Source: Nitrososphaerota archaeon
Lineage (GTDB): Archaea > Thermoproteota > EX4484-205 > JAAOZP01
Length of the DNA: 42,139 nt
Direction: 5' to 3'
NCBI GenBank assembly: GCA_011605725.1
Contig: JAAOZP010000002.1
Location: 1-42,139 of the forward strand
Part shown: positions 4,906 through 27,235 of the stretch, piece after piece
Layout: each line of letters begins with the position of its first letter
Position numbering within the stretch: position 1 is the stretch's first letter
Position numbers and translations under genes: made by a program
Notes under the pieces: model-generated
The model's input: the letters and a program-made list of their open reading frames with translations, nothing else
What the model was told of the DNA's origin: nothing
Databases searched by the model: none

Positions 4906-4906
4906 A

Positions 4907-8701: not shown

Positions 8702-9008
8702 TATTGATGCAAGATTCTCCTTCTAATATCCAAGGTGATATCGGAAGGAAGAAATATTACACCGACGAAGTAACATTCTCCACCTTACAAGAAGTTATCA
8801 TTTAATTATAACCTTGTTAGAAGCCTTCAGACATGTATATCGTAGCTACTTATGATGAGCTTTTGTTTTTTTCAAATCTAGCCAAATTCTCACCTTTTCA
8901 TTGCAAGGAGCTCAATTTAAAAGTTAGGGGGATGTATTGCATTCTGAAATACAAACCAATAGCTTTATTTATGGTAGCCGACGTTAAGGTCAGTTCGGAG
9001 GTGGAAAG

Positions 9009-9917: not shown

Positions 9918-10085
9918 CATACCGGCCCTTAGGTTTGTCTCAATTCTAGAAGGGGAACTTTTTAAGGCTGATGTTAAAAAAGGAAGAGGAGATGCTTAAA
10001 GCCATTCCTCAAAATTCATAAACCTGGCATGCGCACTGATATGCTATAAGAGTGAGGAGGAAAGGTTTTGAAGCATGCTCTTAGG

Positions 10086-10955: not shown

Positions 10956-10961
10956 GCGACC

Positions 10962-12026: not shown

Positions 12027-12027
12027 A

Positions 12028-13392: not shown

Positions 13393-13410
13393 ATATCTCT
13401 ACTACACCAG

Positions 13411-13545
13411 TTATGCTGGGCTGGTGTCATAATCTGCGTCTGCTACATACTTCAAATGTGCATGACCATGCCCTTCTGGCTCTACTGTTGATGGTAATGG
13501 GGAGTATACTTTTGGGGCTTCATAAATTTCTTCACAATTTTCCAC
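13411..13545 (-). CDS. Putative RiPP precursor peptide (44 aa; 47 or 50 aa with upstream GTG starts at 13554/13563)
   Basis: Too short to appear in the ORF track. Translation MENCEEIYEAPKVYSPLPSTVEPEGHGHAHLKYVADADYDTSPA. GGGGTGA SD 5 nt before the GTG, YxxPxV RRE-type leader motif, and the stop is 18 nt upstream of the maturase start. Confidence 0.82.
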   Translation of the reverse strand: MENCEEIYEAPKVYSPLPSTVEPEGHGHAHLKYVADADYDTSPA

Positions 13546-13566
13546 TTCGCTCACCCCTTTCACCTC

Positions 13567-13618
13567 AACAGAGTTTTCTGTTAAGAGGGTTTTTAATTTT
13601 TTTTACAATGGTAAAAAT
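13567..13618 (-). promoter_or_regulatory. Putative promoter region of the RiPP operon with two short inverted repeats
   Basis: A-rich AAAAATTAAAAA TATA-like element on the minus strand about 30 nt above the first GTG. Inverted repeats TTTTAC-AATG-GTAAAA (13601-13616) and AACAGA-GTTT-TCTGTT (13567-13582). Confidence 0.4.
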
Positions 13619-13819
13619 GGCATTTTCTGCTAGAGGAGGTATAGCATTTGTTTGCGCAAACCAGCGGGGCCCACAATGGTCAAATACAGATTATGATCCA
13701 TGAAAACAGGAAGATAAGCTCCAGTTGGGTATGTGAATGCTTCCTGTAGAAAGGGTCAAGTAGCTGTGGTTATGCAAAGGCTTCCTAGGTCATTATGAAC
13801 GTATATACTTTTATACCCA

Positions 13820-15361
13820 CTAGGAGACGTATTTATTTATATATGCTCTATGCTTCTTGAAGGACCTCCGTAGGTCCCTACTAACCATGTTGTGGACTTC
13901 TTGAAGCTCTTTGTACTTCTCCACGTTCAACGGGTTGGGGCTAACACGCGTTTGTTCATCCAGCTTGACGAATCGATCACAGATTTCCCGGATGCTCATC
14001 TTCTCCCCGGAATAGTTCATGTAGCACCACATTGCTTGGAGGGCGGCGCCATATGCTGCACCCTCATCTATCTCTATGCAGACAACCTCTGTGTTAAATA
14101 TGTCTGCGGCTATCTGTCTCCAAACCCTATTTTTCGAACCTCCGCCGGTGAGCCTTATTTCACCGGGCTTTATTCCAAGCTCCCTCATCCTGTTCAACCC
14201 GTAGTTCATCCCGAGTGTAACGCCCTCCATAGCTGCCCTAGTAATGCTCTGCCTGTTGAAAGTCCTGCTGTTCAAACCATAATAGACGCCCGTACCCTCA
14301 GGTACATTCGGCGTCCTCTCTCCCTCGAAGTAGGGGATCAAGAGTAGCCCATTAGAGCCGGGAGGAGCCTCCTCAACAGCCCTTGTTAAGTCGTCATGCG
14401 TCATGTTGAAGAGCTCCCTAACATACTCCGTAGCCACGGTAACATTCATCGTGCACAGGAGCGGTAGCCAAGCATTCGTCGAGTCGCAGAAGGCAGCTAT
14501 CTCCCCCCTCGAGTCGACAACCGGCTTCTCAGAGTAAGCATAAATCGTACCAGATGTTCCGAAGCTTGCGGTCACAATGCCCTTCCTAACGTTACCCGTC
14601 CCTATGGCGCCCATCATGTTATCCCCACCACCAGCGCTGACTACGACATCCTCCCTGAAGCCGAACTCGCCAGCAACCTCCCTCCTGATTGTTCCAACAG
14701 GCTTATCAGATCCCTGCAATGGAGGCAGCTTGTCCCGGAGCCCAGGGTCAATAGCATCTATGACCTTCCTACACCAGACTCTTCTCCTAACGTCCATCAT
14801 CGCTGTTCCGGAGGCGTCGCCATACTCCATAACCATGTTTCCCGTTAAATAATAGTTCAGATAGTCATGGGGCAGGAGGACGTGGCGCAGCCTAGCATAG
14901 TTTTGAGGCTCGTTCCTTTTAAGCCAAAGTATCTTGGGGGCAGTGTAGCCGGGAAGTACCAGGTTCCCTATGAGCCTCAAAACATTCTTTACTCCGCCGA
15001 GCCTCCTAGTCAAGTATTCGCACTCTTTAGCTGTACTCGTGTCGTTCCAAAGCTTTGCAGGCCTTATGACCATGCCCTTCTCGTCCAGGGGGACGAAGCC
15101 ATGCTGCTGGCCTGAAACCCCTATAGCCCTCACGCCCCTAGGGTCTACCCCCGTCTTGGAAAAAACCTCTTTAACGGTTTTATGGAAAGCATTAATCCAA
15201 ACCTGAGGATCCTGCTCCTTATGGCCCGGAGGAAGATTCTCTATCAAACCATAGTTTTCAACGGCCTTACCAACCACGGTGCCGGTCTCCCCATGTACTA
15301 GAAGGGTCTTCATGCTCTGGGTTCCCAGATCCACACCTATGAAATAGATGTTTTCCTCCAA
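13820..15361 (-). CDS. xylB: Xylulokinase (FGGY family)
   Basis: IGVDLGTQS, SGQQHG, LWND, TAPKILW, GGGDN, GERTP and GGGSKN. TTG start. Confidence 0.92.
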   Translation of the reverse strand: MEENIYFIGVDLGTQSMKTLLVHGETGTVVGKAVENYGLIENLPPGHKEQDPQVWINAFHKTVKEVFSKTGVDPRGVRAIGVSGQQHGFVPLDEKGMVIRPAKLWNDTSTAKECEYLTRRLGGVKNVLRLIGNLVLPGYTAPKILWLKRNEPQNYARLRHVLLPHDYLNYYLTGNMVMEYGDASGTAMMDVRRRVWCRKVIDAIDPGLRDKLPPLQGSDKPVGTIRREVAGEFGFREDVVVSAGGGDNMMGAIGTGNVRKGIVTASFGTSGTIYAYSEKPVVDSRGEIAAFCDSTNAWLPLLCTMNVTVATEYVRELFNMTHDDLTRAVEEAPPGSNGLLLIPYFEGERTPNVPEGTGVYYGLNSRTFNRQSITRAAMEGVTLGMNYGLNRMRELGIKPGEIRLTGGGSKNRVWRQIAADIFNTEVVCIEIDEGAAYGAALQAMWCYMNYSGEKMSIREICDRFVKLDEQTRVSPNPLNVEKYKELQEVHNMVSRDLRRSFKKHRAYINKYVS

Positions 15362-15679
15362 CCTTGTCTCAAGTATTATCTCAGAATATTTAAGCCTTGA
15401 CTCTTCACGGAGTCGTGAAACTCATATTCGTCACCTTTTGAACCGTTCTGCTAGGTTAAGGACTGTGTCGGGTAAGCTTCCGCAATACGCGTGTAGCCGC
15501 AACCTGCTTACAATACTCATCATGCTTATGCTCAGCGCTACAGGAGGCTTCGCGCGTGTTAAGCATGCTATTAGTGCTCTATGGTTTGCATCGCCACGTG
15601 GGAGCGAGTTGTGCCGAGTGATCCTAACAGTCTTGTTGAAACCATTAACCATATATACTGGCAGGATGCGGTTTGAAGC

Positions 15680-16633
15680 ATGCCCATAGTGGATCTTCCA
15701 CTGGAGGAGCTTAAGGTTTACAAGCCTCCGCTTACAAGGAGAAGCGATTTCCAAAGCTTCTGGAACCACAACAGGAAGCTCTCTGAGGAGCAGCCTTTAA
15801 ACGCTGTCTTTAAGAGGCTCGAATATCCTGTGAAAAGGCTTGAAGCATTCTTGGTTTCTTTCGACGGCTTTACAGATAAGACTCCAATAGTCTCCTGGTT
15901 TCTAAAGCCCGTTGGAGAAGGTCCTTTCCCGGCGCTTCTAGTTCTCCACGGCTACGGTGGAAACAGGGGCACTGTCTCAGACTATTTGAACTGGATTCTC
16001 CAGGGCGTTGCCGTTATGGCGATAGATGTCAGGGGGCAGTTCGGCGATACACCAGACTTCGCGAAATACCCTTCTGGAAGCATTACAGGACACATGACTA
16101 AAGGCATTCTTGACAAGGAAACCTATTACTACAGGTATGTTTACATGGATTGTCTTCGCGGACTCAGAGTTCTGTGCGAGAGGGAGGATGTTGACGAGGA
16201 AAGGATTGGTGTGACGGGCGCCAGCCAGGGAGGAGGTTTAACACTAATAGTCTCAGCCATGGGAGAGGTTTCCCTATCTCTGCCTGAAATACCTTTTCTA
16301 TGCCATTTCGAAAGGGCTGTTGAAGTTGCGGCTTCAGACCCATACTTAGAGATTTCTCGCTATCTCAAGACGCATCCTGAAAGTGTTGAGAAGGTTTTCG
16401 AAACACTTTCCTATTTCGACGCGATGAACTTCGCTCCAGACATTAAGTGTCCAGTCCTCATGTCAGTCGGCCTCCTTGATACTGTATGTCCGCCTTCAAC
16501 CATTTTCGCAACTTTCAACCACACAGCTTCAGGAATAAAGGAGCTTGCTGTTTACCCTGGAATGGGCCATGAATCTCACAATGTGCATAGGGAGAAAAAG
16601 ATACAGTGGGTCGACAAGTACCTGTTGCGGTAA
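15680..16633 (+). CDS. Acetyl xylan esterase / cephalosporin-C deacetylase (CE7)
   Basis: DLPLEEL..Y.P, HGY, DVRGQ, GASQGGG, LSYFD, DTVCPPST and GHE. Confidence 0.94.
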   Translation: MPIVDLPLEELKVYKPPLTRRSDFQSFWNHNRKLSEEQPLNAVFKRLEYPVKRLEAFLVSFDGFTDKTPIVSWFLKPVGEGPFPALLVLHGYGGNRGTVSDYLNWILQGVAVMAIDVRGQFGDTPDFAKYPSGSITGHMTKGILDKETYYYRYVYMDCLRGLRVLCEREDVDEERIGVTGASQGGGLTLIVSAMGEVSLSLPEIPFLCHFERAVEVAASDPYLEISRYLKTHPESVEKVFETLSYFDAMNFAPDIKCPVLMSVGLLDTVCPPSTIFATFNHTASGIKELAVYPGMGHESHNVHREKKIQWVDKYLLR

Positions 16634-16713
16634 ACATTTGAAACCATCTTTGCACCACCGGGTTTACCATGCTAAATGTTTAAAAGAAACCTGTTGCACA
16701 TCATACCGGAATG

Positions 16714-16995
16714 ATGTCGAAGGTTCCTATTGATCTAGAAAAGTTAAGTAGGAAGGATGTTGACAAGGAGGTTCTGCGTGTAGCTATCATTGCTGAACTA
16801 GACGCTGTAAACCTTTACGAGCAGCTTGCCCAAGCTGCTGGCAGCAGAGACGTTAAGAAAGTCCTGCTGGACATAGCTAAGGAGGAGAAGACTCACGTGG
16901 GAGAATTCCAAGCCCTCCTGCTGAAAATAGACGGGGAGCAGGCTCTGGAGCTTGAGAAGGGCAGGAAGGAAGTTGAAGAAATAACTGGAAAATAA
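16714..16995 (+). CDS. Small ferritin-like protein (EncFtn/rubrerythrin-like half bundle)
   Basis: IIAELDAVNLYEQ and EEKTHVGEF di-iron motifs, followed by D.EQ..EL..G..EV. Confidence 0.85.
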   Translation: MSKVPIDLEKLSRKDVDKEVLRVAIIAELDAVNLYEQLAQAAGSRDVKKVLLDIAKEEKTHVGEFQALLLKIDGEQALELEKGRKEVEEITGK

Positions 16996-17057
16996 ATCAT
17001 TCCTCTCCTTATCTAAACGAAGAGCGTTCCGCACCCTGCTGCCGCTGAGTCGAAGCC

Positions 17058-18092
17058 TTATCTTGACCAGCGTTCCTCAGGAGGAGGTAACACTGGGAAT
17101 GGTGCATGCGGCTCAGTCTGATACCAGTATGCGACTGAAGCAATATCGTCAGTAAGAGGCTGGAATTTACGGTCAGGATACCATCCTAAGGCTTGAATCG
17201 TGACCCTTAGGTCTTTCTTAAACCGTATTGGGTCAAGGATGTGCCACCTGTATAGTGTGTGCCTAGGGACCTCACCCGGCTCCCTCCTGTAGAGAGGATA
17301 GCCTAGGAAAGCTGTTGAAAAAGTCTCGCCGCCGAAACACCATGCTCCCCCGAAATAGTCTTCAGTCCCTGTTCCGCAGATAGTTGGATACTCAGTGTCC
17401 CCGTCTATGAAGAACTTTATTTCCCCCTCTCCCCACCAGCCGTTAGACAGCTGCGTCCACGCTAACACGGTTCCAACATAGTGTCCGCTTCCCTTAACAC
17501 CGTCTAGAATAGTATGCTGCGGGTTCTGCCTTGTTGTCATGGAGCGCCTCCACTGGGCGTGGAAATACGCCATTCTATCCTTAACCTCTTCAAGCGAGTA
17601 GGTTATTTGATAGTAGAATCCCCCTATGTCCTCGATCCACTGGTTTTCAACAGTTATTACAGCACTCCTCTTGAACGGCATTGGAAAATAACAGTTGAAC
17701 CCTCCGGATGGGTTTACTGCAATAGGTATCGAGTTAACATTATACCTCAACCCGTGGCAGTTTGCGAAGAAGTCTCCAAGAGGAACTTCAACCGACGGCT
17801 TCTCCTCACAATCCCAGTAGAAGCGTAGAACACAGTTTCTATACGCCTTAGCATCCACAGTCAGCCAGATGTGGCGGATGAACCCGCTTCCCCTTATGTC
17901 TGCAAGCTTGACGGTCTCCCCTTTCGGCAGTGTTATGCAGGGCTTAACCTTCCATCCTTTTCCAAGCCTTGACGCTGGGCTTCTCTCATCCGGAGCCTCC
18001 ATTGCGCCCCTGCCTTTTTCACCAGTAGGATTCTCAGCTGAGATGGATCGTGTCTCTGCGTCGCTCAACTCTGGAAGAGAGTGTAGGAACAT
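17058..18092 (-). CDS. GH172 (DUF2961) alpha-D-arabino/fructofuranosidase-like glycosidase
   Basis: SISAENPTGEKG, PSVEVPLGDFF, WWGEGE, GTGTEDYFGGAW, YRWHILDPIRF and SVAYWYQ. Confidence 0.93.
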   Translation of the reverse strand: MFLHSLPELSDAETRSISAENPTGEKGRGAMEAPDERSPASRLGKGWKVKPCITLPKGETVKLADIRGSGFIRHIWLTVDAKAYRNCVLRFYWDCEEKPSVEVPLGDFFANCHGLRYNVNSIPIAVNPSGGFNCYFPMPFKRSAVITVENQWIEDIGGFYYQITYSLEEVKDRMAYFHAQWRRSMTTRQNPQHTILDGVKGSGHYVGTVLAWTQLSNGWWGEGEIKFFIDGDTEYPTICGTGTEDYFGGAWCFGGETFSTAFLGYPLYRREPGEVPRHTLYRWHILDPIRFKKDLRVTIQALGWYPDRKFQPLTDDIASVAYWYQTEPHAPFPVLPPPEERWSR

Positions 18093-18804
18093 TTTTGATC
18101 ATGTTCCCTTCCACAGGCCTTAAAAATAAGCTTTTCCAACCACCAATATCGTAGCGCGCGCGTAAAAGTTTCCTCCGATTGTATTATACTTCTCGAGTGA
18201 CCAAGGTGAAAAGGTAGAACCGATAAAGGATATTCAAACGATTGTTACCGTCAGCACATTGAACGATTTGCCTTTAGTGATGGAACCCAGGATGGTTGTC
18301 AAATGGAATGAAAAAATATCTATTAGAAAAGGAAGGCCGGTATTGCTTCTTAGAAGGTCACAGGCTTTTAAGGCAAGTCATCATCTACAAGAAGGACAAA
18401 ATGGCGCTTTTCCGCGGACTAGCTCAAATTCAGATACATGGCCATCGTCATGATAAGCTGAGTTTTCAAGAAATTGTAGAAGTAGCTAAAAGAGGCCGTA
18501 TTTCTCTTACCTGCGCTAGCGCGCGCTAAGTTCATCTTCTGTTCAGAGGACCTAGGGATAATTAGCAGCATCCAAAGTTATTCTGAGGACTTCTACTGCC
18601 TCCCTGGGAAAGAATGGGTTAAACTATTCTATGGAATGGGATAACGCTAACTTTCTGCGCTAAGCTGATCCTCATCGATCTTCATGTGGACGACCTCAGC
18701 ACTAAATATACCCATACTATGTTTAAGCCACGTTCTTGAACCCCCAGCTAGCGCGCGCCACAGGCTCTTCCTATTCGATCCATATTCGTTCTGGGCGTTA
18801 CCTT

Positions 18805-18904
18805 GGTATAAAAGCGGCCATGGGTTATGCGGAGGACTTACTTGACGGAATTGCAGGATAAGGAAAGTTACAAGGTTGTGCTGAAAGGAAGAGGGTTGGC
18901 GTAA
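18805..18904 (+). pseudogene. Decayed 3' fragment of a guaB (IMPDH) homologue
   Basis: Encodes GIKAAMGYA, then after a frameshift LTELQDK, versus GIRAAMGYAGASNIEELRR in the intact guaB. Confidence 0.55.
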
Positions 18905-18937
18905 GCTTTAAAAGCATCCTGATAGCTAGACAGTAAT

Positions 18938-19177
18938 ATGGTTAAACGCACAACCATATTACTGGACGAGGATCTTTACGAGTACTTGATAAGGGAAAGC
19001 ATCAGAAGGCACGGTTCTTCTAAGAAGCTTTCCCAAGTAGTAAATGAGCTTCTGCGCAAGACGTTATTCGACGGCGAAAAGGTTGTTCAGCTTCTTTCAA
19101 AAGAAAAAGTTGCTCGCACTACAGCGAAAGAGTTCGAGGAGTTTAGAAGAAAGCTTTCAAGGAGAATGGAAGAATGA
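18938..19177 (+). CDS. Putative antitoxin (RHH/CopG-like, VapB type)
   Basis: KRTTILLDEDLY....K.LS.VVNELLR, with an ATGA overlap onto the PIN gene. Confidence 0.75.
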   Translation: MVKRTTILLDEDLYEYLIRESIRRHGSSKKLSQVVNELLRKTLFDGEKVVQLLSKEKVARTTAKEFEEFRRKLSRRMEE

Positions 19178-19623
19178 TAATAGACACGACCTATCTTCTA
19201 CCCCTTGCAAGGATAGATGTTGACACGAACCTCCTGGAAGCCATGGTTAAAGGCAAAGTAAACATAAAGATGGAGGAGATCGCTGTGAGCCTCATATCCC
19301 TTTTCGAGCTTCAGGCTAAGGCTGCAAAACTCGGCGTAGCTCCTTCAATCGTATCCGAAGCCTTGGAGGCCGTGAAAAAGGCTTTTAGAGTGATACCTTT
19401 TTACGCGGAGAAAGTGGTGGAGGTGAGCTTCTCATTAAGGAGAAAAATACCGGACTATATCGATTGCGTCATACTGGCAACAGCAATAGTGTTAGGCGAG
19501 GATTTGGCAACGGAAGACAGCCTGATACACTCGAAAAAAAGCCTTATAGAGAAAGAGTATCGGGTGAAGATCCATAGTTTCTCGAGCCTAGTGAAAAAGA
19601 CCCGACCCGTCTCTTACTCTTGA
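19174..19623 (+). CDS. vapC: PIN-domain toxin (VapC family)
   Basis: IIDTTYL, SLFEL, DYIDCVILATA and LATED. Confidence 0.88.
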   Translation: MIIDTTYLLPLARIDVDTNLLEAMVKGKVNIKMEEIAVSLISLFELQAKAAKLGVAPSIVSEALEAVKKAFRVIPFYAEKVVEVSFSLRRKIPDYIDCVILATAIVLGEDLATEDSLIHSKKSLIEKEYRVKIHSFSSLVKKTRPVSYS

Positions 19624-19930
19624 GAGTTTCCGGTCGCCATGCAAGTTGAACAGGATATGGACTTTATGTTATAGATTAAGAAAAATGTGTCAATGAAGCC
19701 AACTATGCCCTGTGTCCTGAATCTGCCCGATCGAAGCCCTATGTAAAGTATACTCTGTCTGAAGGTGTCGGCGTCCAGAACAAACCGTCCTAGCGTGCTC
19801 ATTGGGATTTTTAGATATGTGAATAGTCGCCAACAGACTAGTGCGCGCTAGAAAAGAGTTTTTGAAGCAGCCGGTCGGGTTTAAGAAGTTCCAGAAAATT
19901 TATATCTTTATAATAAGGGTAAATTATGCG

Positions 19931-22474
19931 ATGGTTCATCCGGCAGTTAGTAAGGGCTTCATTGTTGATTGGCTCATATGCGGACCATTCCCCAGAATTG
20001 GCCCTCACCCGAGCGGAAGAGATAGCTTCTACATGGACTTCCTTAAGAATGCAGGAGGAGAGGAACAGATCGAGCCTAAGGTTGGTCTGTCTCATCCGAG
20101 CAGTTGTGTAGAATCCGGGAGCGTTCAGTGGAGGGAGTATGTTGCTGAGCCGAACGGGTTTGTGGATTTCGTGAAACTTTTTGGAGAACCCTTCGTGGAC
20201 TTCTGGAACCTCCGAGGAGGCGTAGCTTATGCTTACACGACGATCCGGTACGAGGAGCCTAGGAGAGTAGTCTTCCTCTTGGGAAGCGAGGACTCGGTGA
20301 TGGTGTGGTTAAATGGGAAGCTGGTTCACCACAATAACATTGGCAGAACTCCCAGTCCCGGACAGGATATGTTCGTGTCGGATTTGGCATCAGGTATGAA
20401 CAAGCTTCTTGTGAAGGTTGCCAGATACGCAGGGGGATGGGGGTTCTATCTCCAACTCTTCAACGCCACAGGGAAGCTCTTCGTCAATGAGGCGGGGGCT
20501 ATTGTGCCCCATCTTAGAATAGGTGAGAAGCTCAGCGGCTGGGCCTGCATTCCCGTGCTGAACACGACTCGACAAAGACTTAACAATGTTACTATAAGGG
20601 TCTTGGAAAACAACCTCTTTAACCCGAGCAGAACTGAGGCAGGGGAATTAGATGCTGGAGAATGGAGGAGAATTCCCTTCCAAATATCCACGAAACGTGA
20701 GGTTAAAGCCGGTGAAGAGTTGGAGCTGAATGTATGCGTGGAGGCCGATGGGGAAACCCTGAACGTGACCCTAAAGCCCGTAGTTCGGAAAAGCGACGAA
20801 TGGTTCATGGCTACGTATCGTTCTGAGGTTGATGGTTCCGTTCAGCCATACGGGCTTCTCGTGCCCACGTCTTACGATAGGGATCGTTCGTATCCTCTCA
20901 TTGTGCTTCTGCACGGCTATAAGGGCGGATGGGCTATCGACGGCTATGCCCTGAAGGAATGGTGCATAGTTGCAGGCATCTATGGCCGAGGAGAGGTTCC
21001 CTATAAAGAGATAGGGGAGCGCGATGTTTTCGAGGTCATCGAAGACGTGAAGAAACGTTACAACATCGATGAAGACAGAATTTATCTTACGGGGCATAGC
21101 ATGGGTGGAAGAGGAACATGGTATTTGGGGCTCCGTAGGCCAGATGTCTGGGCTGCTATCGCACCCCTATCGGCAAGAACGTACGTGGAGGACGTGGAAG
21201 CCCCAAAATACCTACGGGCGCTCAGAGATGAAGAGAGTCCAATACATCTAGCCGAGAACGCCCTGAACCTCCCCATCTTCGTATCCCACGGGTCGGAGGA
21301 TAAAGTCGTTCCCGTAGAGCATTCTAGGCGTATGGTGGCGTTGTTAAGGGGAATGGGCTATGCGGTTGAATACGATGAGAGGCCCGGAATGGGCCATACT
21401 TGGAGCTCATCGGGTAGGCCATGGTGGGGAGAGGAGTGGCTTGACAGGCCCATAATCTCCAACTTCTTTCATAAGCATCGGAGAAAGCGGTATCCAAGGA
21501 AAGTATGCTATAAGACGAACAGCCTCAGGTTCAACAAGGCCTATTGGGTTGAAATCGATGAAATGGACACGGTTTATGAGGCGGCTCAAATTACGGCTGA
21601 GGTTCTCGAGGACAACATGATTCGGATACAAACCGGTAACATCGTCCAATTCACCCTGAGGCTCAATAAAGATTTGGGCATAGATATGGATAAAGCGCTC
21701 ACGATTATTGTAAACGGCTTTAAGGCTCGGATAGAATCCCTGCCCAAGTCCGGAAAGGTTACGCTGAGGGCAATACTCGACGAGAAGGGCGAAGCCACGG
21801 GATACTTGCTCCTCCTCAACCCCGAGGAAGCTGAGAGGGTAACCAAGTTTTCAGTGTGGGGCAGACTTGATGAAAAAGGCATAACAGAAATACTTCACAT
21901 AGCGCCCCAAGGTAATGGCTTAAGGAAAACGCCCAGCATCTTCGGCCCCATTACGGATGCCTTTAACAGTCCTTTCATCCTCATCTACGGGACGCAGGGT
22001 AGTGAAGTGGAGGTCGAGGCGAACAGAAGAGCAGCCCATGATGTGGCTACATGGCGGAAATCATATGCCAATGGGGATTGTGAGGTTAAAACCGATATGG
22101 ATATTGCAGTCCAGGATATCATGAACTACAACCTCGTTCTCTTCGGCAATCCGAAGACGAATGCTTTCGTGGCTCGAATAAATGAAAAATTGCGGATTAA
22201 GTTTAAGGACGAGGCTATTTGTGTAGGTTCTCAGAGGTTTGCAGGAAATGATGCGTCGCTTATCATGATCTATCCAAACCCGCTTAACCCGACGCGGTAC
22301 GTGCTTTTAAATTCGTCGACTACCGTGAAGGGGATGGGGAACATTAAGAAGCTCTACAATAGATGGGTAATGCTTCCGGATTACGTCGTTTTCAATAATG
22401 CATTTATTGAAGAAGGATGGAAGGGCTATCTTGCTGCTGGATTTTTTGATAAAAACTGGCAACTAACGGGATAA
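19931..22474 (+). CDS. Large alpha/beta-hydrolase (esterase/S9-like) with an N-terminal beta-sandwich domain
   Basis: WLICGPF..GSEDSVMVWLNG domain, then SEVDGSVQPY, LLHG, GHSMGG nucleophile elbow, HGSED and GMGH. Likely start MVHPAV at 19931. Confidence 0.82.
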   Translation: MVHPAVSKGFIVDWLICGPFPRIGPHPSGRDSFYMDFLKNAGGEEQIEPKVGLSHPSSCVESGSVQWREYVAEPNGFVDFVKLFGEPFVDFWNLRGGVAYAYTTIRYEEPRRVVFLLGSEDSVMVWLNGKLVHHNNIGRTPSPGQDMFVSDLASGMNKLLVKVARYAGGWGFYLQLFNATGKLFVNEAGAIVPHLRIGEKLSGWACIPVLNTTRQRLNNVTIRVLENNLFNPSRTEAGELDAGEWRRIPFQISTKREVKAGEELELNVCVEADGETLNVTLKPVVRKSDEWFMATYRSEVDGSVQPYGLLVPTSYDRDRSYPLIVLLHGYKGGWAIDGYALKEWCIVAGIYGRGEVPYKEIGERDVFEVIEDVKKRYNIDEDRIYLTGHSMGGRGTWYLGLRRPDVWAAIAPLSARTYVEDVEAPKYLRALRDEESPIHLAENALNLPIFVSHGSEDKVVPVEHSRRMVALLRGMGYAVEYDERPGMGHTWSSSGRPWWGEEWLDRPIISNFFHKHRRKRYPRKVCYKTNSLRFNKAYWVEIDEMDTVYEAAQITAEVLEDNMIRIQTGNIVQFTLRLNKDLGIDMDKALTIIVNGFKARIESLPKSGKVTLRAILDEKGEATGYLLLLNPEEAERVTKFSVWGRLDEKGITEILHIAPQGNGLRKTPSIFGPITDAFNSPFILIYGTQGSEVEVEANRRAAHDVATWRKSYANGDCEVKTDMDIAVQDIMNYNLVLFGNPKTNAFVARINEKLRIKFKDEAICVGSQRFAGNDASLIMIYPNPLNPTRYVLLNSSTTVKGMGNIKKLYNRWVMLPDYVVFNNAFIEEGWKGYLAAGFFDKNWQLTG

Positions 22475-22750
22475 GCGCACGCTCATAGTTGCTGAGGGCT
22501 GTCCGTATTGCAAGCGGGCTGGGCAAGCGATTAAGCGCGCGTCCTTTTTACCGCAAATATCGCATCCTCTATCCGGTCTCTCCTAATTATTGATTTGCAG
22601 ACTTCGCACTTCCAAAGCTCATCGTGAGTCTTCAACATGAAGATTTAGAACATTTATGCTGAGAAAACCTTTCCCCTCATGATCTTGATGAAATTGCGTT
22701 TGGTATGGAAAAGGATTTAAGCAATAGGGCTTTTAGTTATTATTGAGCCC

Positions 22751-23530
22751 ATGGAGGAGTTAAAGGAAATAGAAGAGTACCTGAGGGGCATTGATCCTTT
22801 CGACATACCTTTGGATAAGTATAGAAGGATTATGAATGATGAGAGGTATAGCAGCCTTGCGAATCAGATATTGGTAAAGCTGGATGAGCTTTATGGAGAC
22901 TGGATAAGGGAGAAGTTCAGGGAGACCAAAGCCCAGTCAATAGTCGTTTGCGATAGGAAGGTGGTTTTCTATTCGAAAAACAGGTATGAGCCATCCGACG
23001 GGGAAGTGAGGGAGATGGAGGAGAAAATGGGGAAGCCGTGCTATGTCATAACTGGCGAGCCGTTGATAGAGGAGCGAAGCAACTGGTCTTTCCTGAGCGA
23101 AAGCGACTACTATCCGACCGTTGAAATATATCTTGGAAGAATTGATTGGAGCGATGATGACGTGTTTGAGAAAGGCATTAAGGTTAGGAGCGATTTCGAC
23201 ACAGGAAATCCCGAGTATACAGTTTTAGATGAGAAGACCTGTAGAAGGATGGAAAGCGAAATACCGCTGAGAAGAGTAGGGTATCATCTGGGAAGACGCT
23301 ATTTTTACTTTCCAAGGATGATGAAGGTCGGAATAACAGATAGGAGGAGAAATCGATGTTTAAGCAAAATAGTTGAAGGTGTTGATAACTGGAACAACGT
23401 GGAGCTGAACCCCTATAGACTCGCTAACCCAAACAGGGAAGGGTTTATCGGAAGAGATCTAATGCTTAAATTGCTTTTCAGAATAACTTTAGACCCTGGT
23501 TTAAGGAGATCAACATGGGAGCTTTTATAG
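22751..23530 (+). CDS. Hypothetical protein with a C-terminal retropepsin-like (clan AA) aspartyl protease domain
   Basis: YYPTV...DFDTG...GFIGRDL. The N-terminal ~105 aa form a separate small domain. Confidence 0.55.
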   Translation: MEELKEIEEYLRGIDPFDIPLDKYRRIMNDERYSSLANQILVKLDELYGDWIREKFRETKAQSIVVCDRKVVFYSKNRYEPSDGEVREMEEKMGKPCYVITGEPLIEERSNWSFLSESDYYPTVEIYLGRIDWSDDDVFEKGIKVRSDFDTGNPEYTVLDEKTCRRMESEIPLRRVGYHLGRRYFYFPRMMKVGITDRRRNRCLSKIVEGVDNWNNVELNPYRLANPNREGFIGRDLMLKLLFRITLDPGLRRSTWELL

Positions 23531-23590
23531 CTCGCAGATCATTGTTATAATCGTTTAGCACCATTCTTCAAAAATTTTTAAAGCACTTCG

Positions 23591-23655
23591 AATAAGCAGC
23601 GTCTTCATGCTCTGCGTGCCTAAGTCAACCCCAATAAAATACGTGTTCCCTCCAA
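23591..23655 (-). pseudogene. 5' remnant of a xylB homologue
   Basis: TTG GAG GG- AAC ACG TAT TTT ATT GGG GTT GAC TTA GGC ACG CAG AGC ATG AAG ACG CTG CTT ATT gives YFIGVDLGTQSMKTLLI, versus YFIGVDLGTQSMKTLLV in xylB at 15361. It has a 1-nt deletion and then diverges. Confidence 0.8.
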
Positions 23656-23957
23656 TTTTCCTATTTTAGAAGGAAATCGGCATAACGGTATTTAAACGTT
23701 AAAGCAGTCCCTTACCTTGAAATATCCCGTTATCTTAAGGCTCATCCATGTGAGGTTGAGAGTGTCTTTAAAACCCTCACCTTCAGGTGGAAGTATCGGC
23801 TCTCTTTGCTGTCCCTGATGCTTTGGGGAGCCACCGTAGCGCGCGCTTTAAACCGCCGTCTTCGTTTCTGCAGGCTTTAAAATAAGCTTTTCCCTTCCAG
23901 GTTTTTCTACTTTCACAACCATTTCTGGCACCAATATTACGAATTTTTAATTAATAT

Positions 23958-24935
23958 CTAGAGAAGGTCGATTTCACTTGTGATGCCGAGTTTTCTGGCT
24001 TTCCTATAGACTAGGGCTGCCGCAGCCAGATCCTGTATCGCCAAACCAGTAGAATCAAACACAGTTATTTCATCGTCACTAGTTCGCCCAGCTTTTCTTC
24101 CAACTATGATTTCCCCTAACTCCGCATGTATTTGCTCACGCTCGAAAATGCCTTTGGAAACCGGAACGTTCAGCTCCCCGTAGTGGCAAGCCTGCTCATA
24201 GTCATCCACGACGACTTTCGCCCTTTTAAGAATCATGGGGTCCAACTCCTCCTTTCCGGGAGCATCTGCACCTATAGCATTAATATGCATGCCCTTTTCC
24301 ACCCACTCGTTTTTAACCAAGGGCTGGGTTACTGGTGTAGTAGTTACGAGGATATCGCAACCCCTCACTGTTTTTTCAATGTTCTCATCGATCAGAATGT
24401 TTAGGCCAAGAGGCTCCATATCCTTCGAGAATTTCTCGCATTCCGCCTTTGTTCTAGCATAGACTCTGACTTCCTCTATCCTAAAAACCTCGTTTAAAGC
24501 TAGAAGCTGCGTTCGGGCCTGAGCTCCTGCACCAACCATCCCAACGATCTTCGAATTCTTCCTTGCAAGATACTTCGCAGCTATTCCACCAGTCGCCCCA
24601 GTCCTCATATTGGTTAAGTAGGTACCATCCATTATGGCCAGCGGCCTCCCCGTGTTCGGCTCTATAAGAATTATCGTTGCCATAACAGTCGGTAAACCAT
24701 GCTTCTCAGGGTTCTTCGGATGCACGTTCACCACTTTGACGCAAGCCATCTCAAGGTCAGGAATGTAGGCCATCATCGTCCTGAAATCGCCATCTGGAAG
24801 GGAAACGTAAACCTTAGTCGGCATCTGCACTCTACCCGTGGTCTTAGCCCGGAAAGCATCCTCCATGGCGTCCATTAATTCTCTGATTGAAACAATTCTT
24901 TCAATGTCTTTTCTCAATACTAGCGAGACTTTCAT
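23958..24935 (-). CDS. ala: Archaeal alanine dehydrogenase (ornithine cyclodeaminase/mu-crystallin family)
   Basis: GDFRTM, KVVNVHP.N, RTGA, GAGAQARTQ, AIGADAPGKEELD and FDSTGLAIQD. Confidence 0.88.
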   Translation of the reverse strand: MKVSLVLRKDIERIVSIRELMDAMEDAFRAKTTGRVQMPTKVYVSLPDGDFRTMMAYIPDLEMACVKVVNVHPKNPEKHGLPTVMATIILIEPNTGRPLAIMDGTYLTNMRTGATGGIAAKYLARKNSKIVGMVGAGAQARTQLLALNEVFRIEEVRVYARTKAECEKFSKDMEPLGLNILIDENIEKTVRGCDILVTTTPVTQPLVKNEWVEKGMHINAIGADAPGKEELDPMILKRAKVVVDDYEQACHYGELNVPVSKGIFEREQIHAELGEIIVGRKAGRTSDDEITVFDSTGLAIQDLAAAALVYRKARKLGITSEIDLL

Positions 24936-25122
24936 TCAATGTTTTTACTCTAATTTTCAGTATTTAAGGGTTTTAGCACGCGCATAACAAGTTTACCGGC
25001 GAAACAGTTTAACGTATCGTTAAAAACCCGATGAATCCTCCTTTTTCAGCATTATTGAAAGACCTATTGTAGCTAAGTGCGCACTGACACTTGGAAGCAT
25101 GGCAATAGGATGCTGGCTCCTG

Positions 25123-25317
25123 TTAATCGACTTTTATCTCGTACTTGTTAGCCAGTATCTCCATCTGCTCGTCGAAGTTTCGAACACCTTGAAAGTAGAG
25201 CTTAGTAGCCTCATCGTCAAGCTTATCCTTCCCAATTTTATTCAGCAATGCTTCCGCTATTTTCTCAGCCCTAGTCTTCTCATTCTTCTTTTTTCCGAAC
25301 AGCACCATTTTTCCCAA
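25123..25317 (-). CDS. Small hypothetical protein
   Basis: Charged, protein-like 61-64 aa ORF in line with its neighbours, preceded by the TATA-like CTTATAA. Start at 25317 or 25308. Confidence 0.6.
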   Translation of the reverse strand: MGKMVLFGKKKNEKTRAEKIAEALLNKIGKDKLDDEATKLYFQGVRNFDEQMEILANKYEIKVD

Positions 25318-25371
25318 GTGTTTCTCAGGGAAACTTATAAGTCTTTCCTTCTTCCTCCGGGAGCAAGAGAG

Positions 25372-26202
25372 TCAACAGGTTTTCAGAACATCCTCAATGA
25401 TTCTCTTCGCCTTCAAAATGTCTTCAACCTGCTTAGGCCCAGATATCTCTCTCTCAATCGTTATTGCACCCCTGTAACCCATGGAAACAAGCTTCGGAAT
25501 GAGGATCTTATAGTTCACCTTTCCCTCTCCTAATGGCTTCTCCTCTCCGAGAGAATATCCGTCTCTCGGGTACTCCCCGTCCTTAGCGTGAACACCCTTA
25601 ACATACCTCCCGATAACGTCTAAAGCGTCCACAGGGTTAGCCTTACCGTAAAGAATCAGGTTTCCAGCGTCGAAGTTCACTCCAACGTTGTCAAGCCCAA
25701 CATCCTGAATTGTTCTGAGCAGTGTAACAGGGGTTTCCTGGCCTGTTTCAAACCAGAATTCCTGGCCGTTTCCGCCAATATAGCTTACGAGTTCTCTGAG
25801 AACAGGGATCAGAGTAATGTAATGCGGATCGTTCGGGTTCTCCGGTATGAAGCCAACATGCGTAGTAACGCTTCCAACGCCAACCCTCCTAGTGAAGTCT
25901 GAGGCTTTCTTCAAAGCCTTAACCCTGGCCTCTCTTGTTTCAAGTGGAACCAGCCCGATGGTTAAAGGTCCTTGAACGAAGTTCCACACAGGGGTGCCTG
26001 GCAACCCGCTCCATATGGTTGTTATCTCAACATTGTATTTTTCAGCGGTCTTCTTCAGCATAATCGCCATCTCGTCATTGAAATACTCCATTGTCCAGCA
26101 GGAGACCTGCGCCGTTGGAAACCCGTACTCATTCAGTTTTTTAAACTCTTCCTCCATCTTTGGTTTTAAGCCGACAATCACTCCCAATTTTAAATGCGCC
26201 AA
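25372..26202 (-). CDS. Sugar-phosphate isomerase/epimerase (TIM barrel)
   Basis: THVGFIPE, ETGQE, NFDAGN, HAKDG and TIERE. Confidence 0.9.
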   Translation of the reverse strand: MAHLKLGVIVGLKPKMEEEFKKLNEYGFPTAQVSCWTMEYFNDEMAIMLKKTAEKYNVEITTIWSGLPGTPVWNFVQGPLTIGLVPLETREARVKALKKASDFTRRVGVGSVTTHVGFIPENPNDPHYITLIPVLRELVSYIGGNGQEFWFETGQETPVTLLRTIQDVGLDNVGVNFDAGNLILYGKANPVDALDVIGRYVKGVHAKDGEYPRDGYSLGEEKPLGEGKVNYKILIPKLVSMGYRGAITIEREISGPKQVEDILKAKRIIEDVLKTC

Positions 26203-26317
26203 TCCTCTTCAAGAAGCCTGACCAGTAGTTGATAAGTTTTTCAAAGCATCGGCCAGCTGAGTCTAGCGAAACAGTTATTGGTTAAAGCTTAAAACCCATC
26301 TTATTTTCTAGAAGACT

Positions 26318-27235
26318 ATGAAAGCGATAATAGCAACATGGTCCTTTGGATTGAAGGCGGTTGAAGCCGGATGGAGAATCCTCAGAAACGGTGGATCCGC
26401 GTTAGATGCTGTTGAAGCATCCATAAGGGAAATAGAGAATGATTTCTCAAACAGGTCGGTGGGGCTAGGCGGGTATCCTAATATTGCTGGATTCGTTGAG
26501 CTGGATGCTGCAATAATGGAGGGCTCAACCCTTAGAGCAGGCTCAGTCGCAGCGGTGAGAAATGTTCAGAACCCGATATCCCTTGCTAGAAAAGTCATGG
26601 AGAAAACTCCACACGTCATGATTGTGGGAGAGGGTGCAACCAAGCTGGCTAAGATCTTCGGCTTATACGTGGAGAAGGTTGATCTTCAGCCTGAAGCAAG
26701 GATGGAATGGGAGAGACGGTTGAAAACCGCCGTCTCCACCCCCCAAAAGGAAGGGACGATCGAATTCTGGTTGAAAATGGCTGCTGAAGGACATTACAAT
26801 CATGACACAATCGGTTGTGTAGCCATGGATGATAATAAGAATATTGTTGCCGGATGCTCAACCAGCGGTTATGCTTTTAAACTCGTAGGAAGAGTTGGCG
26901 ATTCTCCAATAATAGGATCTGGGCTTTATGCGAATAGCTTTGGGGGTGCAGCTGCAACTGGCTTGGGGGAAAACATAATGATTCACAATGTTTCAAGGAT
27001 GGTGGTGGGTTTCATGGAGCAGGGGATTCCCGCAGACGAAGCTGCAGAAAAAACAGTGCAGCATCTTCTCAAAATTGGTAGAAGAATAGACCGTATATCG
27101 TTTGTTTCGCTTGACAAGGATGGTTGTTTCGGAGCAGGCACTACAGAGAAATCCTTTCAGTTTGCAGCAATGTCAGATGCTTTCTCAGAGCCACGTTTAC
27201 TCATGGTTGAGAAGGGGGTGCGCCTCAGTTTATGA
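26318..27235 (+). CDS. N4-(beta-N-acetylglucosaminyl)-L-asparaginase / type-2 asparaginase (Ntn hydrolase)
   Basis: ATW N-terminus, SVGLGGYP, ELDAAIM, HDTIG autoproteolysis site, GRVGDSPIIG and ATGLGE. Confidence 0.88.
   Translation: MKAIIATWSFGLKAVEAGWRILRNGGSALDAVEASIREIENDFSNRSVGLGGYPNIAGFVELDAAIMEGSTLRAGSVAAVRNVQNPISLARKVMEKTPHVMIVGEGATKLAKIFGLYVEKVDLQPEARMEWERRLKTAVSTPQKEGTIEFWLKMAAEGHYNHDTIGCVAMDDNKNIVAGCSTSGYAFKLVGRVGDSPIIGSGLYANSFGGAAATGLGENIMIHNVSRMVVGFMEQGIPADEAAEKTVQHLLKIGRRIDRISFVSLDKDGCFGAGTTEKSFQFAAMSDAFSEPRLLMVEKGVRLSL

Follow-up and report, generated by a model that had tools for sequence, protein, structure and literature searches.

A GC palindrome as a probable joint scar between unrelated DNA ends in a hot-spring archaeal lineage

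The stretch of DNA analysed here, called the window, comprises 42,139 nucleotides of contig JAAOZP010000002.1 from a Nitrososphaerota archaeon (assembly GCA_011605725.1; genome G000 below). In it, a DUF2961 gene and ala are separated by a series of unrelated modules punctuated by a GC palindrome, and the features are as follows.

17058..18092, minus strand: DUF2961 gene, conserved left flank (Pfam PF11175, E 1e-93)
18113..18137, minus strand: putative BRE/TATA-like piece of the DUF2961 gene; left copy of a duplicated spacer segment
18152..18163: motif copy 1 (TAGCGCGCGCGT), left joint of a 5.7-kb insertion; homology to seven relatives ends here
18164..18516, plus strand: module A, 353 bp, with a 77-aa ORF (18296-18529) ending in motif copy 2
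18517..18528: motif copy 2, perfect 12-mer TAGCGCGCGCTA (motif scan)
18529..18748: module B, 220 bp
18749..18760: motif copy 3 (TAGCGCGCGCCA; motif scan)
18761..19838, plus strand: module C, possible guaB remnant, vapB-like ORF, PIN/VapC gene and gene fragment
19839..19850: motif copy 4 (TAGTGCGCGCTA, one C>T change; one-mismatch match)
19841..22474, plus strand: module D, 877-aa alpha/beta-hydrolase (Peptidase_S9/esterase) gene (Pfam)
22473..22486: candidate decayed motif-like copy (TAAGCGCACGCTCA) at the esterase gene stop codon; among close motif pairs
22533..22546: candidate decayed motif-like copy (TTAAGCGCGCGTCC; sequence reading); among close motif pairs
22547..23836, plus strand: module F, 259-aa ORF (22751-23530), then kinase and AXE1 remnants (about 23590-23785)
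23837..23848: motif copy 5 (TAGCGCGCGCTT), right joint of the insertion
23849..23957, minus strand: native DUF2961-ala spacer, right copy of the duplicated segment, including the 19-mer at 23875-23893
23958..24935, minus strand: ala (ornithine cyclodeaminase/mu-crystallin family), conserved right flank (Pfam PF02423, E 2e-107)
24974..24987: candidate decayed motif-like copy (TTAGCACGCGCATA) upstream of ala, second homology break

Scanning the window placed TAGCGCGCGC on the plus strand at 18152, 18517, 18749 and 23837, as the first-pass annotation had reported; a fifth match, at 18519, is the minus-strand reading of the same palindrome as 18517, and shuffling gives an expectation of 0.02, with none of 100 shuffles reaching five matches. 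When up to two mismatches were allowed, the 12-mer TAGCGCGCGCTA had six matches in the window against 0.92 expected, at 18517 (no mismatch), 18749, 19839 and 23837 (one each), and 18152 and 3601 (two each). The match at 3601 looks like chance, and because its GC core is broken, the earlier statement that the rest of the window has no copies stands as far as the GC core is concerned. Variants had also been listed at 19839, 22473, 22533 and 24974, of which the one-mismatch copy at 19839 stands, whereas the other three depart from the 12-mer at 3-4 positions and would be weak candidates judged by their letters. Their base changes are of the same kind as those in decayed copies elsewhere, and 24974 is the exact point where homology upstream of ala ends in eight of nine relatives; L009 carries nine different letters in place of this copy.

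Pfam and homology searches agree that the copies separate unrelated modules. Module A has no Pfam family and no source in this genome, and its ORF bears out the observation that a frame ends abruptly at a copy; module B gave no blastx or blastn match in this genome. The proposed guaB C-terminal remnant of module C, at about 18805-18850, gains slight support from 17 residues that match GuaB 434-450 (E 5e-5 in a single-subject search), and the vapB-like ORF occupies 18938-19177 and the PIN/VapC gene 19174-19623 (PIN, E 1e-8, Pfam). In the same module, 19524-19665 shares 90% identity with a remnant that lies next to guaB in the nearest relative, G002, and 19678-19789, read on the minus strand, is a piece of about 110 bp from the gene of a 1060-aa protein (it matches ORFs on C2). 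A search of the genus (16 genomes besides this one) found no DNA homolog of module D. The 259-aa ORF of module F belongs to no Pfam family, has homologs elsewhere in G016 and G013 and is found at depth 124 in a different context in run X12; the remnants behind it match residues 4-22 of a xylB-like FGGY kinase, as the first reading had proposed, and AXE1 residues 221-245. Pfam searches of 33 window ORFs (13 + 20) agree that they include no recombinase.

In seven relatives (L005-L009, L013 and L082) the DUF2961 gene and ala are separated by a spacer of about 95-110 bp that is free of the motif, and therefore 18152-23848 is a 5.7-kb insertion with a motif at both joints. The DUF2961 flank is colinear with relatives to about 18091-18137, the ala protein is 92% identical to that of L005, and the alignment of 23849-23957 to L005 extends from the stop codon of ala as far as the joint, where the exact break falls between TTTAAA and GCGCGCGCTA (reverse strand). 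Synteny with relatives, when followed across the motifs, was found to be broken exactly at them. Contigs of runs X10 and X12 diverge exactly past 18152, X10 carries 411 different letters between 18510 and 18527, and the match of an X3 contig to the window begins at 18527. The 19-mer at 18119-18137 recurs at 23875-23893 with 95% identity, both copies aligning to the single spacer of L005. This spacer was hit independently in G000 and G016 by different toxin-antitoxin cassettes, each bounded by the motif, and both insertions show diverged target duplications of about 100 bp (72-75% identity). We conclude that 18152-23848 is a stack of captured pieces in the DUF2961-ala spacer with one motif per joint. 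The first-pass annotation had suggested an insertion hotspot, integron-like in layout without attC; the motif does mark joints of inserted and captured DNA in a region absent from seven relatives, and the array does look like toxin-antitoxin cassettes without attC, but the motif is genome-wide rather than local, and deletions carry it as frequently as insertions do.

Genome-wide, we found 104 copies with at most one mismatch against 6 for the reversed control, and non-coding DNA, 11.6% of the genome by gene calls from a crude ORF filter, holds 70 of 88 AGCGCGCGCT cores. Conservation over 229 cores stops at 12 bp, the outer T and A being weak (89 and 90 of the 229). For the 10-mer, folding computation gave no hairpin and a self-dimer of -11 kcal/mol at 70 C; no attC-like structure was seen. 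High copy numbers are confined to the clade nearest G000: counts run from 0 up to 143 across the genus, the exact 12-mer is present in eight of its genomes (G000 included) at 1-35 copies each, and 375 of 401 genomes of the phylum (a set that includes G000) are without the motif, none outside the genus having more than 12. G000 also has ordinary CRISPR arrays, the repeat of which differs from the motif.

In a comparison with G002, of which 1.01 Mb was fetched and 716 kb aligned, (GC)3 or longer lay within 15 bp of the block end at 39 of 123 gaps between colinear blocks and at 21 of 45 synteny breaks, against control rates of 3.0% per non-coding window and 11% for any of four windows. The short allele consisted entirely of the motif in 11 of 30 clean large indels, and a decayed motif could be read in the printed sequences of six more; 19 of the 30 were without the strict motif and 13 without even a decayed form. 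Because open frames cross both borders of the long allele in several of these indels (725/301, 127/536, 149/296 and 81/273 nt), the motif allele is a deletion inside a gene, a polarity that rests on the open frames, an outgroup being lacking for most cases. In G002 the motif replaces 949 bp inside a 426-aa ORF. New motifs were also seen at motif-free sites: one exchanged a 20-bp stretch for GCGCGCGCT, another arose by a gain of about 8 nt with almost no loss, and a third is a clean 10-nt insertion within an A-run. Small indels contain the core in 5 of 115 cases, and the borders of a 9-kb insertion (window 4848-13801) are motif-free. Several motifs are common to G000 and G002 at one border and have different adjacent content, and orthologous motifs in the two genomes decay by point changes.

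Deletions in the esterase gene were found in other populations, as assembled metagenome contigs of other runs. The runs X3 (depth 17) and X11, from two studies, share one of 626 bp (20503-21128) with AGCGCGCGC at the joint, and one of 2455 bp (20076-22530) is joined by GCGCGCGGGG in X10, its end at 22531 adjoining the decayed copy at 22533. Since neither border bears a motif in the intact allele, fragility of a pre-existing copy is excluded for these deletions.

Captured fragments carry the same mark. Nineteen of 979 intragenomic repeat ends lie within 10 bp of a motif, where about one is expected, and in ten cases inspected, copies of 52-850 bp of DNA from elsewhere in the genome are bounded by motif-like copies, six of them on both sides and four on one side. 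Seven of the ten are pieces of gene interiors, falling wholly within ORFs by the crude gene call, eight of the ten source copies have no motif at their ends, and overlaps at the fragment ends are 0-4 nt. As empty sites and fragment sources carry no motif, recombination between pre-existing sites of the integron kind is not the whole story.

The motif (T)A(GC)4T(A) stands at the ends of inserted cassettes, at the flanks of captured fragments, at synteny breaks and at deletion sites. We put a probability of roughly 0.85 on the reading that it is a joint scar, formed in this Brockarchaeota-type lineage where two unrelated DNA ends were joined; we do not read (T)AGCGCGCGCT(A) as an operator, as the end of a transposon or as an integron site. 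Its presence at joints in a single group of uncultured hot-spring archaea points to an undescribed kind of DNA-end joining as a driver of gene gain and loss.

As to mechanism, we tentatively prefer a model in which a self-complementary GC linker joins the ends. A short self-complementary GC-rich tail or linker with the unit AGCGCGCGCT would be added to DNA ends that are broken or free, any two tailed ends would anneal into a GC duplex of eight to ten pairs, stable at hot-spring temperature, and gap filling and sealing would leave exactly one palindrome per joint. Direct healing of a break would yield a bare motif or deletion scar, and healing with loose DNA between the ends would yield motif-fragment-motif; arrays would grow by repeated rounds at one fragile place, and the motifs would decay afterwards, chiefly by C>T changes. 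Because no enzyme was found, this mechanism is one that we infer: reverse transcriptase and Ku were each present in 0 of 17 genomes, a PolX palm domain in none of the 17 above the cut-off, and Prim-Pol in 1 of 17. Adding one and the same sequence at each joint calls for a sequence-specific polymerase, or else for a template or a ready-made oligonucleotide, and no such agent is known for it. The target duplications of the DUF2961-ala spacer are not predicted by the linker model.

Staggered cutting by a motif-specific nuclease or integrase at the borders of A(GC)4T, to our minds a somewhat unlikely course, would likewise place one motif at each joint and flank captured fragments on both sides, fill-in duplicating the motif around the ligated DNA in a manner that resembles a CRISPR repeat or casposon target duplication. 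The self-complementary overhangs would rejoin any cut motifs, flanked segments would shuffle and would collapse to one motif when lost, and bare motifs at formerly motif-free sites would be collapsed insertions. This suits the close clustering of sites (11% of neighbour gaps are below 100 bp against 2.4% expected) and the 10-bp period of tandem motifs, the independent motif-bounded hits on one spacer in G000 and G016, and the toxin-antitoxin genes of the islands (6 PIN, 2 DUF5615, 3 HEPN/HepT and 2 MNT plus others among 77 ORFs); border motifs shared by G000 and G002 with differing content are explained at least as well as by the linker. However, the empty sites in seven relatives and most fragment sources are motif-free, and deletion scars inside intact genes would take two steps. 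No candidate gene emerged, the single tyrosine recombinase of G000 above the cut-off lying far from most sites and the 77 island ORFs including no integrase or transposase, and GCGC and AGCGCT (observed/expected 0.94 and 0.92) are not avoided, which means that there is no visible restriction-type pressure. We regard it as improbable that the palindrome is a tiny selfish insertion in AT-rich non-coding DNA that then acts as a fragile site (Z-DNA, cruciform or dense GCGC) and seeds rearrangements, although near-clean core insertions exist, copies are mainly non-coding, indels recur by shared copies, and the mobile GC clusters of yeast mitochondria offer a parallel (PMC4478555). The core is found in 5 of 115 small indels as against 11-17 of 30 large clean ones, fragments are motif-flanked on both sides while most of their sources are not, and a motif of 10-12 bp without a hairpin differs from hairpin clusters of about 42 bp.

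There is a slim chance that excision of a TA-targeting cut-and-paste transposon with GCGC-starting ends left the motif as its footprint, the element being missing through repeat collapse in assemblies and its cargo having moved as composite transposons, the two copies of which were later excised. Staggered excision by 4 nt, together with TA duplication, would leave the form TA + GCGC/GCGC + TA, as in a Tc1/mariner footprint, and several motifs lie near contig ends; yet the 2280 half-sites hold no AGCGC-starting repeat family, and the assembly has no element with matching ends and no high-identity IS family. IS630/DDE_3 transposase was found in 0 of 17 genomes and the TnpB of G000 is a 29-position scrap, results that weaken the earlier suggestion of a transposon target scar. 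Moreover, the outer T and A are weak, the annealed-overhang product TA(GC)2TA is not enriched (12 copies, 1 non-coding), and contigs of four other runs have no element at the joints. A transcription-factor operator had also been suggested; this reading, widened to an operator or insulator bound by a transcription factor or chromatin protein that coincides with variable regions simply through a shared intergenic location, would fit a perfect, mostly non-coding palindrome, with a promoter-like box some 20 bp downstream of copy 1. We reject it as extremely unlikely: motifs are not depleted between convergent genes (24 sites against 16.9 expected; divergent, 28 against 29.4) and show no fixed distance to start sites genome-wide, they are not conserved at orthologous places, being absent from the spacer in seven relatives, and vary widely in number within the genus, and they stand at deletion joints inside genes. 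An artefact of library preparation or assembly, conceivable where all genomes are metagenome-assembled and population variants are contigs, is hardly credible either. The motif is shorter than the usual word lengths of assemblers, which speaks against it, as do the identical 626-bp deletion joint in runs from two studies, the orthologous motifs that decay by point changes, and the 375 phylum genomes without the motif.

Among known systems, integron arrays are alike in stacking unrelated single-gene or toxin-antitoxin modules with a recurring site between them, and in varying among close relatives. Integrons combine attC and attI sites with the IntI integrase, attC being imperfect and 50-150 bp long, and large chromosomal arrays are rich in toxin-antitoxin cassettes; here, in contrast, the site is a perfect 10-12-bp palindrome without a hairpin, no integron-type integrase is nearby, sources and empty sites are motif-free, and plain deletions carry the motif too. 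CRISPR arrays and casposons share the palindromic unit flanking each captured piece, the pieces including the cell's own genes. They rely on Cas1-type integration with target duplication and have units of 24-48 bp, whereas the unit here has 10-12 bp, the pieces follow no ruler and measure anything between 0 and several thousand bp, the arrays lie at about 100 scattered places with no leader, and new motifs arise at motif-free sites. End joining is likewise known to add letters, as N and P nucleotides, filler DNA and the templated insertions of polymerase-theta-type joining, which vary or are copied from nearby DNA. The joints described here resemble these in their extra letters at non-homologous ends, overlaps of 0-4 nt and loose DNA captured between ends, but carry one constant self-complementary word at some hundred joints in several species. 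Footprints of Tc1/mariner and IS630 elements are also short TA-flanked palindromes left in DNA, while here there is no element or transposase, the outer TA is weak, and the motif sits at captured fragments and large deletions. The mobile GC clusters of yeast mitochondria are described in PMC4478555 as palindromes rich in GC that have putative target duplications, are polymorphic in populations and move by a mechanism not yet settled; palindromic elements are also described from Fusarium mitochondria (PMC7218506). Like the present motif, these are short GC-rich or palindromic units in AT-richer non-coding DNA, polymorphic in populations, associated with indels nearby and of unknown mechanism. 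They are hairpin units of about 42 bp considered to transpose as elements; unlike them, the motif described here is a non-hairpin word of 10-12 bp that stands at the joints of large deletions, insertions and captured fragments.

The palindrome TAGCGCGCGC, a GC run of 10-12 bp with the general form (T)A(GC)4T(A) that we call the motif, was found at all four positions where the first-pass annotation had placed it (18152, 18517, 18749 and 23837), against 0.02 copies expected. A copy at 19839 was added once mismatches were allowed, and another mismatched hit, at 3601, has an interrupted core and is probably a chance match. The variants proposed at 22473, 22533 and 24974 are weak on sequence alone (3-4 differences) but are consistent with the pattern of decay seen elsewhere, and the one at 24974 coincides with a homology break. 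Since in seven relatives (loci L005-L009, L013 and L082) the DUF2961 gene (window 17058-18092) and ala (23958-24935) are only ~95-110 bp apart, the window, which is the whole of contig C13 in a 2.23-Mb genome of 20 contigs (93% complete), holds a 5.7-kb insertion in this spacer. Homology to the relatives ends at the motif on the left and on the right of the insertion, the right break against the nearest relative falling exactly between a native TTTAAA and the GC run, and none of the 10 loci compared over the DUF2961-ala region of relatives contains the motif. About 95 bp of the spacer, with a promoter-like 19-mer, flanks the insert left and right, in a diverged and shortened form on the left. 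In the interior of the insert, motif copies divide pieces of different origin:

Pieces of the insertion at window 18152-23848
Pieces 1 and 2: two short segments, source not found in the studied genome
Piece: weak guaB C-terminal remnant, a vapBC-like pair and a 110-bp scrap of the gene for a 1060-aa protein
Piece: 877-aa esterase gene, its DNA homolog absent from the other 16 genus genomes
Piece: 259-aa ORF (22751-23530), then fragments of the xylB-like and AXE1 genes nearby

For three of the motif-divided modules (A, B and E) a search of the studied genome detected no source, and an Rfam scan of window 15000-27000 gave no match. The 259-aa ORF falls in no Pfam family and has homologs at other places in two genomes of the genus (G016 and G013); it looks like a mobile gene, because in the metagenome run X12 its surroundings differ (borders at 22650 and 23530) and its depth is 124.

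The DUF2961-ala spacer has been struck independently in other genomes. The 1.08-kb insert of G016 consists, in order, of an ala 3'-end copy (~100 bp, 72% identity), TA(GC)6TA, an RHH+PIN-type pair and TTAGCGCGCTTA; from the reading of frames, the pair is putatively toxin-antitoxin-like and differs from that of the window. A third insert, of 1.3 kb and unrelated, occupies the same spacer in G009. The ala gene itself carries a ~1050-bp insertion, possibly an intron, an intein or a mobile element, in G016, G007 and one more relative, in the same codon region (window 24259-24261; L120 8076-9127, L121 4729-5778, and also L082). A second insertion specific to the studied genome, of ~9 kb (window 4848-13801), lies between guaB (3408-4838) and the xylB-like kinase gene (13820-15361) and is absent from the nearest relative, G002, and from G016. 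It encodes a polysaccharide deacetylase, GH88-like and GH4 hydrolases, a sugar-isomerase-like TIM barrel, an ABC ATPase and a radical SAM/SPASM/PqqD enzyme, and there is no motif at its borders. The guaB-xylB spacer of G002 holds a 140-bp vapC remnant matching the vapC now at window 19524-19665.

Across the studied genome the perfect 12-mer form of the motif, with at most one mismatch, occurs in 104 copies, compared with 6 for the reversed control, and 28 copies are perfect. The core AGCGCGCGCT is the most frequent palindromic 10-mer, and the most frequent 10-mer overall once CRISPR-repeat words are set aside; the latter, the commonest 10-mers of the genome, assemble to the repeat GTAGAATCTCAAAGGAGAATTGAAAG of arrays at contig ends (C15:1-3060 and C11:137800-140140). 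Copies with three, four, five and six GC units number 59, 88, 20 and 2. Outside the GC core, a flanking A/T and a weaker outer T/A are conserved and nothing further, the flank profile of 229 cores being flat beyond +/-2. Intergenic enrichment and clustering, both suggested as checks by the first-pass annotation, were borne out: 70 of 88 cores lie in the non-coding 11.6% of the genome (outside a crude ORF set), and the sites are clustered, with tandems of 10 bp among them. An operator would sit at positions linked to promoters and be kept at orthologous genes, and this alternative is contradicted for the motif by its absence from the orthologous spacer of seven relatives and by the spacer types it occupies, convergent spacers holding 24 sites against 16.9 expected (tandem, 42 against 47.6; divergent, 28 against 29.4). 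Motif clusters sit in islands rich in toxin-antitoxin and truncated genes, with no integrase or transposase among 77 island ORFs, and in one such island with 11 sites (C4:48-68 kb) hardly anything aligns colinearly with five relatives. A repeat of ~115-130 bp at C4:59700-59830 (L085 11700-11830), perhaps a MITE-like element or a gene for a small RNA, recurs many times in five relatives (at least 4 times in G008 and 6 in G006, for instance). Among short words, TAGCTA, which is the motif pattern with a single unit, occurs 443 times where 284 are expected (ratio 1.56), without non-coding enrichment. The ratios of 0.67-0.70 for GGCC, GTAC, GATC and AATT show avoidance and hint at restriction systems that target these words.

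Within the genus, the number of copies with at most one mismatch ranges from 0 to 143; the motif-rich genomes (besides the studied one, G002, G016, G007, G008, G006 and G009) are those nearest to it (DNA identity 78-90%), and the motif-poor ones (G003, G004, G005, G013, G014 and G015) belong to a farther clade (67-78%). When 401 genomes of the phylum, the studied one included, were scanned for the exact 12-mer, it was frequent only in the clade of the studied genome (35, 28, 26, 14, 11, 9 and 4 copies), and 375 of the 401 had none, which contradicts an artefact. The maximum outside the clade is the 12 copies of G285, from another family of the phylum, compared with 4 for the reversed control, which may be a weaker independent occurrence or mere base composition.

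The motif is a signature of joints, able to arise where none existed, and it accompanies deletions, insertions, fragment capture and rearrangements; it is also reused and decays. The ends of repeat segments fall within 10 bp of a motif in 19 of 979 cases in the studied genome, where about 1 would be expected. Ten captured copies of DNA that is present elsewhere in the genome were examined, of 52-850 bp: six have a motif-like copy at both ends and four at one end, seven lie wholly inside ORFs (by a crude gene call), and motif and fragment share 0-4 nt. The source copies of eight of the ten carry no motif at their ends. We then set 24 loci around 26 perfect copies in G002 against the studied genome and found the motif at the alignment break in most comparable cases. 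At one locus, 949 bp within a 426-aa ORF of the studied genome correspond to a bare motif in G002; at another, 20 bp are replaced by GCGCGCGCT, and 900 bp away the studied genome has a motif where G002 has none. A 21-kb island (C9:60340-81660, L099) with at least nine motif copies and many toxin-antitoxin genes, flanked by two putative tRNA-like sequences read by eye, has as its G002 counterpart about 90 bp with a motif, the two flanking sequences being only about 150 bp apart there and enclosing one motif.

A census was carried out by aligning 1.01 Mb of G002 to the studied genome (194 best blocks, 716 kb aligned). A run of (GC)3 or longer lay within 15 bp of a block end, in either genome, at 39 of 123 colinear block gaps and 21 of 45 synteny breaks; as a control, 3.0% of random non-coding windows contain such a run, or 11% for any of four windows. 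Among 30 clean indels, in which one side is at most 30 bp and the other at least 70 bp, the motif makes up essentially the entire short allele in 11, and a decayed copy with one or two changes, mostly of the C>T type, was recognised by visual reading in six more. In several of these indels the long allele has open frames that continue through its two borders, which makes the motif allele a deletion within genes. Small indels carry the motif in 5 of 115 cases, one being a clean 10-nt insertion of (GC)4 plus AA. Returning to the clean large indels, the motif is not always present. As 13 of the 30 lack any form of the motif, even a decayed one, and the 9-kb insertion likewise carries none, the process is frequent but not universal.

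Eighteen runs belonging to 15 studies contain parts of window 17000-25500; one of them carries a coded organism label and the others are metagenomes of hot springs or sediments. For four runs the contigs, not the reads, were aligned to this region. The esterase gene has suffered a 626-bp deletion joined by AGCGCGCGC in runs X3 (where it is the main form, at depth 17) and X11, from two studies, and a 2455-bp deletion joined by GCGCGCGGGG in run X10; the intact gene of the window has no motif at the places of either deletion. In X10, moreover, 411 other letters stand at motif 18517 and the right joint of the insertion is replaced, and the contigs of X10 and X12 diverge directly after 18152.

As to how the motif is written, we infer a joining by linker: DNA ends would gain a self-complementary GC tail or linker and then join through it, a route that would leave one palindrome per joint and would yield each type of joint in one step. 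The small overlaps and the stability of a GC duplex at high temperature make this model fit; the motif duplex is computed at -11 kcal/mol at 70 C, with no hairpin predicted. We give roughly one chance in three to the full form of this reading, a dedicated joining and capture pathway in which one self-complementary GC adaptor would be attached to all free DNA ends, so that any two ends stick at high temperature. Such a pathway would underlie most large deletions, the uptake of foreign cassettes such as toxin-antitoxin and enzyme genes, and the captured-fragment arrays, which in form would resemble a ruler-less forerunner of CRISPR arrays, and it would make the motif a readable, datable record of every such event. 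The weak point of linker joining is the missing writer, as neither Ku nor reverse transcriptase was found in any of 17 genus genomes, the same 17 yielded no PolX palm, and Prim-Pol was found in only one. Canonical Ku/LigD end joining, which needs Ku and a LigD-type polymerase domain, is unlikely by the same counts of Ku and Prim-Pol, telomerase-like addition is rejected by the absence of reverse transcriptase, and an origin from hairpins or P-nucleotides by a filler that is constant and unrelated to its flanks; a DNA uptake signal would leave the motifs at deletion joints inside genes unaccounted for. A multi-copy 816-aa ORF of no Pfam family was also rejected as a candidate writer, because G003 has it while G002 and G016 lack it, a distribution unlike that of the motif. 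It is located at C19:163517-165964, C17:3-1229, C7:437822-438352 and C4:210535-211065, at contig ends, and adjoins a weak integrase-like ORF (E 6.5e-4, below the cut-off).

The main rival to linker joining is a nuclease or integrase that would cut at the borders of the motif, fill-in then doubling the motif and cohesive ends permitting shuffling. Such an enzyme would account for clustered sites, for their reuse and for tandems of 10 bp, but it requires two steps for scars at motif-free sites, and its candidate gene is likewise missing; moreover, neither it nor the linker predicts the diverged ~100-bp target duplications at both DUF2961-ala spacer insertions. Fill-in of a cut A^GCGCT would yield A(GC)4T, and a restriction scar was nevertheless rejected: GCGC and AGCGCT are not avoided (observed/expected 0.94 and 0.92), and the ancestral break points lack AGCGCT in the cases inspected. 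A tiny selfish palindrome that causes DNA fragility is possible but fits less well, and the same holds for the footprint of a TA-targeting cut-and-paste transposon, the target scar of the first-pass annotation: DDE_3 transposase occurs in 0 of 17 genomes, in whose assemblies repeats may be collapsed, and of TnpB there is only a scrap. The terminal repeat of a MITE or insertion sequence has conserved sequence running inward from the ends of an element in multiple copies. This identity is rejected for the motif by flat flank profiles and by 2280 half-sites that share no downstream words, and the studied genome contains no high-identity repeat family.

To our knowledge, both end joining in Ku-less archaea and the building of gene islands in genomes nearly without transposons or integrases are poorly understood. 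Here, between a third and more than half of the large indels that separate two species bear one and the same short word, which also stands at the edges of acquired genes and at recent deletions in natural populations. If specific machinery writes this word, that machinery would constitute a new route of repair and gene capture, possibly adapted to high temperature, would explain the growth of toxin-antitoxin and defence islands in this lineage, and would let structural change in metagenomes be traced by an inherent tag; an enzyme able to link any two ends via a fixed adaptor could also find use as a laboratory tool. On the least exotic of the readings, whether a tiny mobile palindrome or a transposon that escaped detection, the agent would still be the dominant force on these genomes, and one undescribed as far as our searches, which lay outside subscription journals, reached.

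The hotspot interpretation of the first-pass annotation is partly supported and considerably widened. In an integron, an IntI-type tyrosine recombinase lies beside the array, attC sites are imperfect inverted repeats of ~50-150 bp that fold as hairpins, and cassettes move between pre-existing sites. The arrays of captured pieces are similar in layout, but integron-like site recombination does not fit the empty site of seven relatives and eight of the ten fragment sources examined, none of which carries a motif. The annotation was right that attC structure is lacking, in that conservation ends at 12 bp with no hairpin and no attC-like inverted pairs at the module borders, and that the window contains no recombinase, Phage_integrase having 0 matches among 33 window ORFs; it also has 0 among the 77 island ORFs, and one above cut-off (C17:9113-9610) in the whole genome. 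CRISPR arrays, in which repeats of 24-48 bp alternate with near-constant spacers beside a leader, are similar in form, but here the unit is 10-12 bp and the spacings run from 0 to several kb. Extra letters known as filler DNA occur at end-joining joints, and the joint chemistry at the motif is similar. The motif unit also recalls the mobile GC clusters of mitochondria, which are hairpin-forming GC-rich units of tens of bp with target duplication (PMC4478555), but it is 10-12 bp long and forms no hairpin, and a target duplication, of 2 nt, is possible in one clean insertion only. Our searches of literature outside subscription journals yielded no account of the motif. It belongs to none of the known systems against which it was tested, and we rate it as a new kind; the phenomenon is real and lineage-specific.
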